Origin: an uncultured Gammaproteobacteria bacterium
GTDB lineage: Bacteria > Patescibacteriota > Patescibacteriia > Magasanikbacterales > GWA2-37-8
Assembly: GCA_964407865.1 (NCBI GenBank)
Contig: CAYOXC010000001.1
Span: forward strand, 331,978 to 395,977
Direction: 5' to 3'
Length of the DNA: 64,000 nucleotides
The translations under genes and the position numbers were made by a program. Under the pieces are notes generated by a model. The model searched no databases. It was not told the origin of the DNA and saw only the letters and a program-made list of their open reading frames with translations. Below, one piece after another: positions 8,569-58,011 of the stretch (the stretch's first letter is position 1; each line of letters begins with the position of its first letter).

Positions 8569-8572
8569 AATT

Positions 8573-9853
8573 CTATTTCAATAAATTAGATAATTGTTTT
8601 CTATCAAGAGAGCCGATAACTGCCACTTTCATTTTATTTTCCTTAAATATTTCCTTGGCTAAATCCTGAACTTGTCGAGCTGTTACTTTTTTTATCTTAA
8701 CCAGATCTTTTTCATAATCATCAAGGTTGTTTTGAAACCAAAATTTTAAAGCGTAAAAACTTGCTTGGGCGCTTGAATCTTCCATCCTTAAAGCATACTG
8801 ACCGGTCAAATTTGTTTTAGCGTCGTTTAATTCCTTCAATGACACAGCCTGGCGAGTAATTTTTTTAAGTTCATCTTTAATCACCTCGATCGCCTCCTTT
8901 AATCGCTTCTGGTCCAAACCGGCCTCAATCCAAATAAGACCTGAATCTCTAAACATTTCCTGTCCCATGCGAATCTTATAAGCTAAACCTCGTCGTTCCC
9001 GAACTTCGATAAATAAGCGAGAACTCATACCGCCGCCAAGTATGTTAAGAAGTACGGCTAAGGCCCAGCGCTTTTTGTCGTTATAAGATATTCCAGGAAA
9101 ACCTACGATTACATTGGCCTGATCAACTCGTCTTCTGCTTAAAACAGAACGCTTTGAGGGTATTAGTTGATTCGTAAATTTTGAAAAATCTTTCTTATAT
9201 ATTTTTTTATAAACTGTTTTTTTACTGTAATCAACACCAAAATATTTATTTATTTTTACTAATAAATCATTTTGAATATTGCCAGCAGCTACCAGTACCA
9301 TGTTATCAGGCCTATATGCACCCTTATAAAAAGAAAAGAGATCGTCTCGACTAACTGCGTTAACTGTTTTTTTCGTGCCAGCAATATCGCGTCCAAGCGG
9401 ATGGTTGCCAAATAATAATTTTTCAAAAATTAAACTGACAGCCGTGGCTGGATTGTCTTCGTACATTTTTATCTCTTCAACAATGACACCCTTTTCTCTT
9501 TTTACTTCTTCTGCATCAAACTTAGAAAAAAATAAAATATCTGCCAGAATATCCAGGGCTAAAGAAGATTTATTGCTTGCAATCTTAATGTAATAACCAG
9601 TATATTCCTTGCTAGTAAATGCGTTAAACTGCGTGCCTGCCGCATCTAACTCGCGGGAAATATCAAGAGCTGTGGGGCGTTTCTTTGTACCCTTGAACAT
9701 CAAATGTTCAACAAAATGAGATGCTCCGGATATTTTTTCCGATTCATATCTCGATCCAACAGGCACCATGGCGAGAAATGTCACCGCTTTTGTTCCCTTG
9801 ATTGGTTTGATTATTACTGAAAGACCATTCTTTAATTTCTTAACTTTTAGCAT
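8573..9853 (-). CDS. M16 family zinc peptidase (insulinase-like)
   Basis: HFVEHLMFKGT inverted zinc-binding motif HxxEH. Confidence 0.8.
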   Translation of the reverse strand: MLKVKKLKNGLSVIIKPIKGTKAVTFLAMVPVGSRYESEKISGASHFVEHLMFKGTKKRPTALDISRELDAAGTQFNAFTSKEYTGYYIKIASNKSSLALDILADILFFSKFDAEEVKREKGVIVEEIKMYEDNPATAVSLIFEKLLFGNHPLGRDIAGTKKTVNAVSRDDLFSFYKGAYRPDNMVLVAAGNIQNDLLVKINKYFGVDYSKKTVYKKIYKKDFSKFTNQLIPSKRSVLSRRRVDQANVIVGFPGISYNDKKRWALAVLLNILGGGMSSRLFIEVRERRGLAYKIRMGQEMFRDSGLIWIEAGLDQKRLKEAIEVIKDELKKITRQAVSLKELNDAKTNLTGQYALRMEDSSAQASFYALKFWFQNNLDDYEKDLVKIKKVTARQVQDLAKEIFKENKMKVAVIGSLDRKQLSNLLK

Positions 9854-54693: not shown

Positions 54694-55053
54694 CTAATAG
54701 CGCAGAATTACAAATCGAATCATAACGGTTTTTTTAATTCGATTAGGCCAAATAATTATACCTGCGGTAATTAGGTTGGTATCACCAATGTTCCGCCGCA
54801 AACAATATTTTTTCATCGCTCGCTCCATAGACTGTCGCTTCTTTGCTCCGATAGCTAAATCATTGGCCAAGACTCTCTGCCTACGTGTTTTTACTTCCAC
54901 AAAATAATAATCGCCGCCGGATTTGGCGACGATATCTATCTCTCCGTAATCAGTGTAAAAATTTCTTTCAATAATTTCGAATTTGTGTCGGCGTAAAAAA
55001 TTCACAGCTATATCTTCGCCCCACTCGCCTAACCGCCGTTTGCCATGACCCAT
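54694..55053 (-). CDS. yraN: YraN/UPF0102 family endonuclease
   Basis: GEWGEDIAVNFL...GEIDIV...FVEVKTR motifs. Confidence 0.75.
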   Translation of the reverse strand: MGHGKRRLGEWGEDIAVNFLRRHKFEIIERNFYTDYGEIDIVAKSGGDYYFVEVKTRRQRVLANDLAIGAKKRQSMERAMKKYCLRRNIGDTNLITAGIIIWPNRIKKTVMIRFVILRY

Positions 55054-55064
55054 ATATTACTTGC

Positions 55065-55472
55065 CTATTTAGGCAAATATTTTGCTTTAGCTATTTTTTC
55101 AGCCTGTTCTTTTTTGATGATCGGCGCTCGTCGCACTAAAAAAATTATATTTACTATTTTACGCCATATAGCTATTCCAAATATAATAATCAGCCAAAAA
55201 CGCCAAGCCAAAAAAGGAACTCTTTCCTGCCTGAAAAACATCCAAAGCAAACCCAGAAGTCCAACAGACAATCCGATATTACTAAAACTATTTATGGTTT
55301 TTTTAAGGTAATTAGTCTCTATTCTCTGACTTATAAATTTTAATACTAGTCCTGAAAAAACAAAAAAAAGAAAAAATATTACCCAAATCCACATGGTCAT
55401 GCCCCGGGCAATATATGGCTGATGAAACCAATAATACCAATCAAATAAATTCATTATACTGATGACATTCAT
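55065..55472 (-). CDS. hypothetical membrane protein
   Basis: Three to four hydrophobic helices. Confidence 0.3.
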   Translation of the reverse strand: MNVISIMNLFDWYYWFHQPYIARGMTMWIWVIFFLFFVFSGLVLKFISQRIETNYLKKTINSFSNIGLSVGLLGLLWMFFRQERVPFLAWRFWLIIIFGIAIWRKIVNIIFLVRRAPIIKKEQAEKIAKAKYLPK

Positions 55473-56023
55473 ACGCTTTTTTTCTTAAATACATGACAAA
55501 AATGATACTCGCCGATGGGTATGTCTTCTGTAAAATCAAAACCCTCATTATCGGCTATATTTTTCAATTCAGCCTGATCAATCATTTGCTCAGGCAAAGG
55601 TCCAAGAGGACCTAATTTCTTTGCCCAATCAACGACTACTAAATAGCCGTCTTTTTTTATTAAACGAGCCGCTTCTTTAATAGCATCTGGGCGATTTTTT
55701 AACATAAACATTACATTCATAAAAAAACCAGCATCCAGACTGTTTTCAGGCAGAGAAGCAGCGCCCGTCTTTTCTATGTCACTCCAAATAGTTTGAATAT
55801 TTTCAAACCCACCGGAGCGAGCCTGGCTTTTAATGCTTTCCAAAACATCTTTCATGATATCAAGAGCGTAAACAACACCGCGCTCTCCGACCCGAGGAGC
55901 TAACTGAAATGTAATATGACCGGTTCTGCCGCAACCAAAATCCGCAACGCGCATGCCTTCGCCAAGTTTTAGTTTATCTAAAATTTTTGCCGGATCGATT
56001 AAAGCAGTACCTGAATGTGGCAT
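55469..56023 (-). CDS. class I SAM-dependent methyltransferase
   Basis: VADFGCGRTGH (motif I) and downstream acidic residues. Confidence 0.7.
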   Translation of the reverse strand: MPHSGTALIDPAKILDKLKLGEGMRVADFGCGRTGHITFQLAPRVGERGVVYALDIMKDVLESIKSQARSGGFENIQTIWSDIEKTGAASLPENSLDAGFFMNVMFMLKNRPDAIKEAARLIKKDGYLVVVDWAKKLGPLGPLPEQMIDQAELKNIADNEGFDFTEDIPIGEYHFCHVFKKKSV

Positions 56024-56024
56024 A

Positions 56025-56315
56025 TTATTTTACGAATAAACGGCCAAGTGTTGCCATGAGAAAACCAGTCATAAGATTTGTGGCAACTAACATGCCAACA
56101 AAAATTAAAACTAAACCTAATAATTTATAAAATAAACGACTGCCACCAGAAGTGCCTAAATTATCTTCCGCCCAAGCAACAGAGCCGAAATTCTGAAAAA
56201 ACCATTCTGATTTAAAAATCATAACGGTACCGAAGGCTACAATTAATAAACCAATGATAATTCTAAACATAAAAAAATGTAAAAAACGTGCGCGGGAGAG
56301 GACTCGAACCTCCAA
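56025..56315 (-). CDS. small hypothetical membrane protein
   Basis: Three hydrophobic helices in 96 aa. Confidence 0.3.
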   Translation of the reverse strand: MEVRVLSRARFLHFFMFRIIIGLLIVAFGTVMIFKSEWFFQNFGSVAWAEDNLGTSGGSRLFYKLLGLVLIFVGMLVATNLMTGFLMATLGRLFVK

Positions 56316-56372
56316 GATCTTGCGACCGCTACCACCTCAAGGTAGTGCGTCTACCAATTTCGCCACCCGCGC
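56288..56372 (-). tRNA. trnL: tRNA-Leu (anticodon GAG), class II with long variable arm
   Basis: GCGCGGGTGGCGAAATTGGTAGACGCACTACCTTGAGGTGGTAG...GGTTCGAGTCCTCTCCCGCGCA. Confidence 0.85.
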
Positions 56373-56377
56373 TAATG

Positions 56378-56617
56378 TCATAATAAATTATTTTTAATCC
56401 ATTCTTTACCAATGCCTGATTTTAAATATTTTTCTCTTTTTCGTGCAGATAACCTATCTGAAAAATTTTCACTGTATATAAATTTAAAAGGGCTATACGG
56501 CGCGGTTGTTTTTTCTTTGCCGCGTTGATGTTCAGCAATTCTTCTATCTAAACAATTGGTTAAACCAACGTAAATATAATTTCTGAAAATACTTTTTAAA
56601 ACATAAACAGCATACAT
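56378..56617 (-). CDS. GIY-YIG nuclease superfamily protein (UPF0213/YhbQ-like)
   Basis: YAVYVLKS...YIYVGLTNCLDRRIAEHQRG...Y GIY-YIG core. Confidence 0.75.
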   Translation of the reverse strand: MYAVYVLKSIFRNYIYVGLTNCLDRRIAEHQRGKEKTTAPYSPFKFIYSENFSDRLSARKREKYLKSGIGKEWIKNNLL

Positions 56618-56622
56618 ATCTA

Positions 56623-56673
56623 ATCCTATAGTAGTGCGCCTGCCTGCCGGCAGGCAGGTCTACCAATTTCGCC
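56623..56673 (-). repeat. partial copy of tRNA-Leu (nt 1-32) interrupted by a perfect 20-bp GC palindrome
   Basis: 56651-56673 and 56623-56630 are identical to 56342-56372; inserted cctgcctgccggcaggcagg at 56631-56650. Confidence 0.7.
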
Positions 56674-56746
56674 ACCCGCGCGAACTGTTAATCGATAATA
56701 GCTGAAAGTTAACAAAAGTTCAAGACCCTGACTCTGTAAGCGTAAT

Positions 56747-57514
56747 CTAAAACTTTCTATCTCTACCGACAATCATCTGAATCTTATCTTTGGCTAATTT
56801 GATTTTTACCTTCACTTCTTTTGTTGTTTTGCCATCAGCCTCAACCACAAAAGGTCCTTTCTCACCAATGATTTCCATTTCTTCAAACGGGAAAATGCTT
56901 GGATCCTCGTATTGATAACCAAACCAACCCTTTTTTGTAATCGGCCTTAAAAAGGCTTCTAATTTATCATCCTGAGGATGAACGACGAACTCCTCGCGGT
57001 CGTGCTTATTTTTTTTCCAATAAAATGGCTGGAAGTTACATACTACGACTTCCATTTTGTATGGCGTAGTAACCTGAAAACGCTCATCATAAACAACACG
57101 AATTTTTGCCGGCGGAACATGTAGCTGAGAAACAAAATATCGATTATTAAACCAACCAACATCAAGCTTCTGCTTACGCCTACGAGCTAACACATCGGCC
57201 GCTGGAACACCTTCGGGAATACCTAAAACTTCTGCAATTGTATTTTCGGAACCGATCGGCAAAAAACCAAAGACGCAATCACAAGTTGCTCCACGAGACA
57301 GCACATGGCCAAAAGTTCGATCATTACCGACGATCACTATATTCTTTGCTCCACGGCGAATTTCATCGTCGATAATCGGCTTTACATCGATATACGTATT
57401 TAAACGCAAAATTTTACCAGCAATCCCATAATCAACGAGACGAATCTCAATTTGTTTTAGGGTTGACTGGTATTTTCGGTTGTTTAAATAATTGTCGTAA
57501 AGGTAAACGTACAT
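56747..57514 (-). CDS. diacylglycerol/lipid kinase catalytic-domain protein (DAGK_cat, YegS/BmrU-like)
   Basis: NIVIVGNDRTFGHV and GFLPIGSENTIAEVLGI motifs. Confidence 0.65.
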   Translation of the reverse strand: MYVYLYDNYLNNRKYQSTLKQIEIRLVDYGIAGKILRLNTYIDVKPIIDDEIRRGAKNIVIVGNDRTFGHVLSRGATCDCVFGFLPIGSENTIAEVLGIPEGVPAADVLARRRKQKLDVGWFNNRYFVSQLHVPPAKIRVVYDERFQVTTPYKMEVVVCNFQPFYWKKNKHDREEFVVHPQDDKLEAFLRPITKKGWFGYQYEDPSIFPFEEMEIIGEKGPFVVEADGKTTKEVKVKIKLAKDKIQMIVGRDRKF

Positions 57515-57528
57515 AAAAGAGGCCCAGA

Positions 57529-58011
57529 TTAAACTGCCCCCTGGTTGCTGTTATCTTCATTCCGACGAGAGCGGCTGCCACGTCCACTTCGCGTTTCCGA
57601 AGCTTCAAGACCAGGCATTGTTACTTTCCCGAAAAGTAGGGCGCCAGATTCCATAGCGATAGTAGAGGCCTCAATATCTCCAACCACTCGAGCAGTAGAT
57701 GTCAATTCAACATATTCACGCACTTTCATGTTGCCTCTTACCTCGCCTGCAATCGTTGCACTACCTGCTTTGACATTGGCAACTATCTTTGCGCCTGGTT
57801 CAACTAATAAAGTTTTACTGGTATTAACACTACCAGTTACTGTTCCTTTAACAATTATATTTCCTTCAGAGGCAAAATCACCTTCTACATTTACTGACGG
57901 TCCTACTATGGTATCAACATTGTCATCTGGTTGGCCGATTTCTTCGTAAGCTTCTTCATCCATTATCTCTTCAACCTCCTCAGCCGAGGTATTTTGACGC
58001 TTAAAAATCAT
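57529..58011 (-). CDS. bactofilin (polymer-forming cytoskeletal protein, DUF583)
   Basis: Repeated hydrophobic-Gly beta-helix windings VEGDFASEGNIIVKGTVTGSV...IAGEVRGNMKV...VVGDIEAS; disordered acidic/basic termini. Confidence 0.75.
   Translation of the reverse strand: MIFKRQNTSAEEVEEIMDEEAYEEIGQPDDNVDTIVGPSVNVEGDFASEGNIIVKGTVTGSVNTSKTLLVEPGAKIVANVKAGSATIAGEVRGNMKVREYVELTSTARVVGDIEASTIAMESGALLFGKVTMPGLEASETRSGRGSRSRRNEDNSNQGAV

Follow-up and report, generated by a model that had tools for sequence, protein, structure and literature searches.

The present analysis concerns a small free-standing nuclease gene, the tRNA gene beside it and a short palindrome, all located within a 64,000-nucleotide (nt) stretch of contig CAYOXC010000001.1 from a member of the Magasanikbacterales (Patescibacteriota). 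This stretch, with a G+C content of 38%, is referred to as the window, and coordinates given without a locus number are positions in it. On its minus strand lies a cassette that consists, in order, of a promoter-like site, nt 1-23/24 of a tRNA-Leu gene, a perfect 20-nt palindrome (here called PAL), nt 24/25-31 of the same tRNA, an open reading frame (ORF) for a GIY-YIG nuclease of 79 amino acids (aa), and an intact tRNA-Leu(GAG) gene. The parts of the locus are as follows.

56288..56372, minus strand: intact tRNA-Leu(GAG) gene, 85 nt (ARAGORN; Rfam RF00005, 51.6 bits, full length)
56378..56617, minus strand: GIY-YIG nuclease ORF, 79 aa, stop codon included (ORF list; Pfam PF01541)
56618..56630, minus strand: leader TATAGGATTAGAT, 13 nt, with a Shine-Dalgarno-like AGGA (sequence; presumed function)
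56631..56638, minus strand: second piece of the dead tRNA copy, tRNA nt 24/25-31, CGCACTAC (repeat search; sequence)
56639..56658, strandless: PAL, perfect 20-nt palindrome CCTGCCTGCCGGCAGGCAGG, 80% G+C (single match in the window)
56659..56681, minus strand: first piece of the dead tRNA copy, tRNA nt 1-23 (blastn; repeat search)
56682..56746, minus strand: spacer of 65 nt between the stop of a DAGK-like gene and the tRNA fragment (sequence)

The intact tRNA-Leu(GAG) gene has no encoded CCA and is followed by a T-run; it is the sole functional copy and the anchor of the cassette. The nuclease ORF starts with an ATG at 56617 and ends 5 nt upstream of the tRNA gene. Its G+C content of 27.9% and third-position G+C content (GC3) of 17.5% make it a compositional outlier against the two flanking genes (39-40% and 31-36%). 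Both genes had been named in an earlier reading of the letters (the original prediction), which described a free-standing GIY-YIG gene of 79 aa on the minus strand, 5′ of a tRNA-Leu(GAG); the tRNA is confirmed by ARAGORN and Rfam, and the nuclease by its ORF and Pfam match. The exact, palindrome-interrupted partial tRNA copy reported upstream of the nuclease gene is likewise present. Nucleotides 1-24 of the tRNA recur at 56681..56658 with 100% identity (blastn E = 1.6e-8 within the window), nt 24 of the dead copy overlapping the last base of PAL, and nt 24/25-31 follow on the other side. Relative to the intact tRNA the interruption measures exactly 20 nt, with no deletion or duplication, and it falls precisely between the D-loop and the 3′ D-stem. 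The interrupting palindrome is perfect, as had been stated, but it is not 100% G+C, since 16 of its 20 nt are G or C. Past nt 31 the dead copy seems to be degenerate (TATAGGATTAG versus CTTGAGGTGGTAG, compared by eye only), and the 13-nt leader may be a degenerate extension of the tRNA copy into the anticodon-loop region.

Neither the nuclease gene nor PAL has a second copy in the window. With up to three mismatches allowed, PAL gives one match where none is expected (100 shuffles), and any perfect 20-nt palindrome is expected about 0.1 times per shuffled window. A sigma-70-like site (TTGAAC-17-TATTAT, 56723..56695; a consensus match from a promoter scan) lies just upstream of the tRNA fragment and could drive a unit comprising the fragment with PAL, the nuclease gene and the tRNA. 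A scan of the locus revealed no terminator-like site between fragment, ORF and tRNA, or at PAL; given this and the promoter-like site upstream, co-transcription of fragment, nuclease ORF and tRNA is plausible. Over positions 55000-58000, Rfam at E ≤ 1 returned the tRNA only, with no group I intron between the tRNA halves, and no integrase gene lies between the repeats, which are only ~260 bp apart.

The locus is found without the cassette in relatives that were chosen by their upstream DAGK-like neighbour protein, 74-88% identical to that of the window. In L119, L120, L122 and L123 a tRNA-Leu(GAG) gene begins 0-45 nt after the DAGK-like gene (for L123, ARAGORN assigned no anticodon), and none of these four loci contains the nuclease gene, the tRNA fragment or PAL. 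The acceptor stem GCGCGGG is common to the window tRNA and its orthologues in L119 and L120, and the genes downstream of the window locus also follow in L119, L122 and L123. The cassette is an insertion that is absent from these relatives. The original prediction had held that a comparison of the tRNA-Leu locus in relatives would count against it if no empty-site variants existed; such variants do exist, in its favour. L119 (3353-3510), the closest relative, also appears to carry a different small insertion at the same tRNA: its tRNA-Leu(GAG), which has no cassette, is followed by a G+C-rich non-coding insert of ~150 nt and then by an 18-nt repeat of the tRNA 3′ end (GAATCCTCTCCCGCGCAC).

The cassette belongs to a large family sited almost only at tRNA-Leu genes in several phyla. 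A search with an alignment of homologues, run against one genome per species, retrieved at least 551 relatives, and 80 loci were examined. Their hosts belong to Patescibacteria, Bacteroidota, Ignavibacteriota, Omnitrophota, Balneolaceae, and assemblies labelled Nitrospiraceae, Bacteriovoracaceae and Gammaproteobacteria, representing at least seven phyla. A tRNA-Leu gene on the same strand lies ≤150 nt downstream or ≤210 nt upstream of the nuclease gene at 71 of the 80 loci, with the anticodon GAG, CAA, TAA, TAG or CAG; at two others a tRNA-Arg takes its place. A partial copy of the adjoining tRNA is usually found on the far side of the nuclease gene, and it bears PAL or a close variant in ~83% of loci. 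The majority layout, which includes that of the window, consists of tRNA nt 1 to x, a 20-nt insert, tRNA nt x+1 to y, the ORF and the intact tRNA. A mirror layout has the intact tRNA first, followed by the ORF and a 3′ tRNA piece with the insert. Repeats usually start at about tRNA nt 1 in the majority layout and end variably (nt 24-71), and those of the mirror layout often pass the tRNA 3′ end into the terminator.

The cassette is dynamic, with tandem amplification, decay to pseudogenes and occupation of different Leu isoacceptor genes. Near-identical tandem cassettes (97-100%) are present in L010, L035, L047, L049, L061 and L070, and the two of L013 share 90% identity; L027, L040 and L047 contain frame-shifted copies; and cassettes are found at two Leu genes of one assembly, a CAA gene (L009) and a GAG gene (L011). 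Clustering of the proteins by distance, which is not a tested tree, mixes phyla, anticodons and both layouts, and protein pairs that are 82-86% identical are found at different tRNA-Leu isoacceptor genes. Horizontal spread, with a phylogeny unlike that of the hosts or of the target copies, is a feature of homing genes that is seen here by distance clustering.

A comparison of three loci indicates which parts of the cassette travel and which are local. The proteins of L056, L059 and L052 are 83-86% identical and are encoded at GAG, CAG and GAG genes, respectively, with unrelated flanks. Each fragment is copied from the local tRNA, ending at nt 32, 38 and 27, and that of L059 contains the local CAG anticodon loop. 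After the fragment the three loci have a common leader, GCAACA..AGTTCTTTAAT..ATG, and the right edge is the first base of the intact tRNA. By this comparison, what travels is essentially leader plus ORF, and the repeat of tRNA nt 1 to y appears to be generated from the target at each arrival. Fragments can also travel with the cassette, to judge from L004, where the fragment looks CAA-type and the adjoining tRNA is TAG. Among the cassettes of Patescibacteria no common leader is visible in the alignment, and the fragment merges gradually with the ribosome-binding region. That the cassette entered at a tRNA gene and left a functional tRNA behind, as originally proposed, is thus borne out by the empty sites, the 71 loci at tRNA-Leu, the arrays, the pseudogenes and the different isoacceptor genes. 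The proposed target-site duplication holds as a duplication of tRNA sequence, but not as one of the classic short type, the repeat running from about nt 1 to a variable nt 24-71 and being derived from the local tRNA.

Additional arrangements were observed at individual loci. A divergent GIY-YIG paralogue (32-38% identical) lies across the tRNA from the cassette in L015 (525-851), L028 (3391-3648) and L035 (3672-3941), so that a tRNA-Leu gene can have two different members of the wider family at its sides. Nor is the wider family confined to tRNA-Leu, since in the metagenomic loci L168, L174, L197 and L218, which were found via PAL, members lie by tRNA-Asn, tRNA-Ser, tRNA-Lys and tRNA-Arg together with PAL-interrupted fragments of those tRNAs. 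In a viral contig (L115, 454-1460), a PAL-interrupted tRNA fragment and a family nuclease gene are located directly upstream of an intron-bearing tRNA. The anticodon loop of this tRNA holds a group I intron (Rfam 86 bits, 1182-1416) whose ribozyme core is separated from the tRNA 5′ half by an ORF; two different invaders are present in this single tRNA gene.

Some observations concern assembly and annotation. tRNA-sized runs of N adjoin cassettes at L041 (~3885), L064 (174-260), L069 (1150-1235) and L082 (2929-2987), where parts are unreadable. Three Logan contigs of the same organism with the nuclease gene of the window (L001-L003) all stop ~40 nt past the gene, where the tRNA starts, and the repeated tRNA 5′ part may break short-read assemblies at these points. 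Gene callers run into the tRNA (..KLVDA..) or into PAL (..GRPACRQAG..) in the window ORF 56626-56772 and in the C-termini of P0004, P0022, P0035 and P0078; because the peptide RPACRQAG is PAL translated, these extended family ORFs are annotation artefacts.

Judged by its sequence and predicted fold, the 79-aa protein is a bare GIY-YIG catalytic domain of the UPF0213/Slx1-like branch. Residues 1-67 match Pfam GIY-YIG PF01541 at 54.8 bits (cut-off 22.6; E = 1.1e-14). Residues Y5, Y16, G18, R25, R26 and E62 are invariant in 34 homologues, and H30 is at least 90% conserved; by analogy with I-TevI, we take Y5, Y16, G18, R25/R26, H30 and E62 to be catalytic. The mean column identity across phyla is 58%. 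An AlphaFold2 model with a predicted local distance difference test score (pLDDT) of 95.8 has strands at residues 2-9, 15-20 and 44-52 and helices at 23-32, 55-66 and 68-77, which form a beta-beta-alpha-beta-alpha-alpha core with nothing besides. In the PDB, hmmsearch finds 1zg2 (E = 8.5e-7), 1ywl (1.6e-6) and SLX1 (4e-3), and Foldseek places 1zg2, Slx1 (TM score up to 0.71) and HIGLE ahead of I-TevI. The nearest proteins by sequence and fold are the UPF0213 proteins BH0048 and EF2693, followed by Slx1 and HIGLE.

The common core and catalytic residues are shared with these best matches, namely UPF0213/YhbQ-type proteins and Slx1 (1zg2, 1ywl, Slx1 7cq2 and 6sei, HIGLE), although the identity is only 25-31%. 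UPF0213 proteins have no known function, whereas Slx1 requires its partner Slx4 and has a RING domain; no report of tRNA-gene linkage or mobility was found for either. The protein matches no NCBIfam family and no PHROG family at E ≤ 0.01. Plasmid collections contain zero homologues and 50,697 phage records contain two weak matches without annotation, and homology to the phage endonuclease SegB was not detected in the PHROG and phage-record searches. Classical phage GIY-YIG homing enzymes combine the catalytic domain with a separate DNA-binding region. In contrast, the catalytic domain occupies all 79 aa of the present protein, which has no DNA-binding module for a long target; the gene would therefore work like a homing endonuclease gene without being a typical member of that class.

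PAL, which the original prediction took for a possible nuclease recognition or cleavage site or a transcription hairpin, is a separate dispersed 20-nt element that is not private to the cassette. It is present exactly in 41 of the 80 loci and with ≤3 mismatches in 63; three further loci have a 39-nt form with the same 10-nt arms and a 19-nt centre, and most of the remaining loci have indel variants of 19-22 nt. Around the genes, 91 kb contain 82 PAL-like copies, as against 6 in the 344 kb of flanking sequence, an enrichment of ~50-fold. The position of PAL relative to the ORF varies: it is upstream at some loci, downstream at others, and present on both sides of several genes (L027, L060, L069, L005, L042 and L080). 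It is never found inside the intact tRNA of cassette loci. Its insertion is always precise, at cassettes as well as at the other sites examined. The points of insertion into tRNA copies (marked here by a slash) are few: the D-loop (GAA/TTGG), the edge of D-loop and D-stem (AGA/CGC, as in the window), the edge of anticodon stem and loop (CGA/CTCAAAA), and the edge of T-stem and T-loop (GCCGG/TTCGA). The D-loop/D-stem position also recurs in fragments of Lys, Val, Arg and other tRNAs by family members.

Exact copies of the 20-mer also occur in 35 stretches from viral contigs and in at least 120 from metagenomes (29-71% G+C); away from family members, PAL is found in intergenic DNA, inside short tandem repeats and nested in PAL-like palindromes. 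A family member lies within 400 nt of 9 of the 127 metagenomic PAL sites (7%) and of 1 of the 43 sites in the 35 viral-contig stretches. The 39-nt form has zero matches in the viral contigs. One viral contig (L108, 2239-2330) contains an otherwise complete tRNA-Met(CAT) with exact PAL in its variable loop, scoring 50 bits with the Rfam tRNA model, and the same tRNA-Met with PAL is found in L085 (~8570-8650), its T-arm partly deleted. Stand-alone copies within tandem repeats of ~7-15 nt that continue on both sides are seen in L084, L086, L092, L107, L127, L129, L142, L167, L170, L230 and L238, and a few viral sites lie between exact direct repeats of 7-14 nt, for example TTGCGGA-PAL-TTGCGGA.

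Exact copies account for 49 of the 82 near the genes, and the variants preserve pairing or stability no better than random mutants (p = 0.4 and 0.1). The copies thus look like the recurrent arrival of a master sequence followed by decay rather than like per-copy structural conservation, and a conservation of PAL as a structure is unsupported. PAL itself forms a stable hairpin, and the leader as a whole has an unexceptional fold (z = -1.8). Other candidate explanations of PAL were set aside. General insertion into hairpin loops was rejected, as the flanks of 166 PAL sites did not exceed 1452 random sites in self-complementarity (p = 0.2-0.6). A role as intrinsic terminator is unsupported, the scan having shown no terminator-like site at PAL, and so is an origin from the abutted terminal repeats of a larger element around the gene, half-sites flanking the ORF being absent.

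Taking these findings together, we consider it probable that the locus is a homing-like nuclease cassette of a selfish kind that has specialised on the genes of tRNA-Leu, and that PAL has settled at those points in redundant tRNA copies at which the nuclease cuts. The predicted nuclease would break the DNA of a tRNA-Leu gene, and repair, anchored on one side by homology in the tRNA sequence and joined more loosely at the other, would copy in the cassette and duplicate tRNA nt 1 to y while one tRNA stays whole. Repeated cutting and unequal repair could then give rise to tandem arrays, as for SegB, and the nuclease gene would be expressed by read-through within the tRNA transcription unit. PAL would be a separate element that becomes fixed at nuclease cut sites in non-essential tRNA copies, where it would remove the cut site and interrupt a direct repeat that could otherwise delete the cassette; insertion into the intact tRNA would presumably be lethal, and hence not be seen. 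That the positions of PAL mark nuclease cut sites is a guess.

By analogy, the cassette would act like a free-standing homing endonuclease gene, for which SegB appears to be the nearest behavioural precedent. SegB is a phage GIY-YIG endonuclease that cuts inside tRNA genes ('intronless homing') with no isotype preference, and its nuclease activity, together with recombination proteins, is needed for tandem amplification of the tRNA-segB segment via homologous recombination (PMC13096335). SegB and the free-standing GIY-YIG homing endonucleases of T-even phages are likewise encoded by genes that lie outside introns, among or beside tRNA genes, just as the present cassettes adjoin tRNA-Leu and form near-identical arrays of cassettes and tRNA pieces. 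However, SegB is a phage protein, whereas the present family resides on bacterial chromosomes, has next to no matches in phages or plasmids, and is ~90% associated with tRNA-Leu; furthermore, an element like PAL is not described for SegB.

A second parallel is collaborative homing, reportedly described by Zeng, Bonocora and Shub in 2009, in which a free-standing endonuclease is said to act together with an ORF-less group I intron that interrupts its target. Both arrangements have a nuclease gene beside the target gene and a separate insertion within target copies, at points where its presence would block cutting. Unlike the intron, PAL is 20 nt long and cannot splice; it is confined to dead copies and absent from the working tRNA, and so it cannot protect a functional gene.

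Several points weigh against the homing-like reading. To our knowledge, a 79-aa domain without a DNA-binding module is not known to read a long specific site, and the specificity for tRNA-Leu is left unaccounted for. The intact tRNA retains any target that the fragment has lost, which leaves a gap in the self-immunity argument. In the acceptor arm the fragment usually shows 100% identity to the intact tRNA, which simple cross-gene homing would not produce without later gene conversion. The link between PAL and the nuclease may be indirect, as 118 of the 127 metagenomic PAL sites are far from such genes; the PAL variants are no better paired or more stable than random mutants, and PAL flanks elsewhere resemble hairpins no more than random sites do. 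Finally, the empty-site relatives are 12-26% diverged in the neighbour protein, and the borders of the insertion in the window genome cannot be placed exactly.

A different division of roles, which we regard as a serious but doubtful possibility, is a two-part transposon of the kind formed by repetitive extragenic palindromes (REP) and REP-associated tyrosine transposases (RAYT), with PAL as the mobile unit, the small GIY-YIG nuclease as its mobilising enzyme and tRNA-Leu as a safe harbour for the enzyme gene. The enzyme might cleave the extruded palindrome at its base and also cleave targets; the 20-mers so excised, being self-complementary, might re-anneal as a blunt duplex and be ligated into breaks. 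Such a system would agree with the dispersal of PAL over many genomes, where its 20-nt consensus is invariant and its insertions are precise and duplicate no target sequence, with the exact copies and apparent decay from a master near the genes, with the genes that have PAL on both sides, with the ~50-fold enrichment beside the gene, and with the resemblance of the protein to Slx1, a structure-specific nuclease. It fits poorly with the scarcity of family members near metagenomic and viral-contig PAL sites (9/127 and 1/43) and with the single PAL in the 64-kb window, no GIY-YIG enzyme is known to act as such a transposase, and both the siting of the gene at tRNA-Leu and the duplication of the tRNA are left unexplained. 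The full form of this idea, a new two-component mobile system in which PAL is cut as a cruciform, its 20-mers re-anneal and are sealed by host ligase into nuclease breaks, and the enzyme gene homes into tRNA-Leu, seems to us rather improbable. If true, it would be the smallest known transposable unit, with a chemistry outside the DDE, HUH, serine and tyrosine enzymes.

Comparable elements are known. The very small dispersed repeats of cyanobacteria (SDRs) measure 21-27 nt, as given in a paper that cites the original description (PMC3116915, citing Elhai et al. 2008). Like SDRs, REP/REPIN elements and the GC clusters of yeast mitochondria, PAL is a dispersed G+C-rich palindrome located precisely in the non-coding DNA of many genomes. 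It differs from them in having the same sequence in different phyla and at genomic G+C contents of 29-71%; its sequence is distinct from those of the cyanobacterial SDRs and its host range far wider, and it lacks the GTAG or CGTC tag of REPs. No Y1 (RAYT) transposase was seen, though no search aimed at RAYT genes was made.

Quite unlikely, in our estimation, is a host gene with a cellular role tied to tRNA-Leu, such as processing, repair or quality control, that is co-transcribed with the tRNA and surrounded by fragments produced as by-products of local duplication. Such a role is suggested by the very tight linkage to one tRNA isotype on the same strand (2-30 nt), by the strong conservation of the protein (58% mean column identity across phyla) and by a GIY-YIG domain similar to that of Slx1 and fused to a TrmH-type tRNA methyltransferase, a hint of a role in RNA (PMC1564403). 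Against it stand the absence of the gene at the same tRNA in close relatives, the tandem arrays and pseudogenes, the patchy distribution among phyla with a mixed phylogeny, the atypical composition, and the several copies per genome at different Leu genes (L009 and L011 in one assembly). Given the empty sites, arrays, pseudogenes and patchy distribution, a host function is unlikely.

Very unlikely are explanations at the level of RNA, in which the PAL-bearing tRNA pieces would be cDNA of processed tRNA, or an RNA of fragment and hairpin would regulate or neutralise the nuclease like the RNA antitoxin of a type III toxin-antitoxin system. In most loci with the tRNA after the gene the repeat starts at about the mature tRNA 5′ end, PAL occupies loop regions of tRNA copies (D-loop, anticodon loop, T-loop and variable loop), and the fragment forms part of the ORF's 5′ leader, where PAL is a stable hairpin. 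However, a reverse transcriptase is absent, at loci with the tRNA ahead of the gene the repeats often reach beyond the 3′ end of the tRNA and into the terminator, PAL is upstream of the ORF at some loci and downstream at others, GIY-YIG enzymes are DNA nucleases, and the whole-leader fold is unremarkable.

tRNA-Leu genes serve as integration sites of integrase-driven elements, for example Bacteroides NBU1. A remnant of such a genomic island, with the partial tRNA as attachment-site repeat, would explain why a direct tRNA repeat flanks foreign DNA, but it is barely credible, being contradicted by an anatomy with ~260 bp between the repeats and no integrase, with the 5′ rather than the 3′ part of the tRNA repeated in the window, and with the same minimal layout over 80 loci in which the nuclease is the only gene.

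The literature searched, outside which many subscription papers lie, contained nothing relevant on a link between bacterial GIY-YIG proteins and tRNA-Leu, or on UPF0213, YhbQ or COG2827 in this connection. The PAL sequence was not found there either, its 12-nt halves matching two unrelated papers only. No description of the three-part arrangement was found, and an earlier one may exist.

In practical terms, tRNA repeats of this kind appear to break short-read assemblies, and gene callers overextend the ORF into the tRNA or PAL. Culturable carriers of the family include Niabella (for example N. insulamsoli, CP190246), Algoriphagus and Chitinophaga. The origin of very small repeats has long been a puzzle, and for PAL a candidate enzyme and a defined insertion hot spot can now be offered. 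The family also raises the question of how a catalytic domain of 79 residues gains specificity for leucine tRNA genes. More generally, these findings suggest that a ~240-bp nuclease gene can maintain itself on the chromosome, parasitising an essential gene, by keeping one tRNA whole, and that the hosts of such a parasite include the bacteria with the smallest genomes, the Patescibacteria, as well as Bacteroidota and other phyla.

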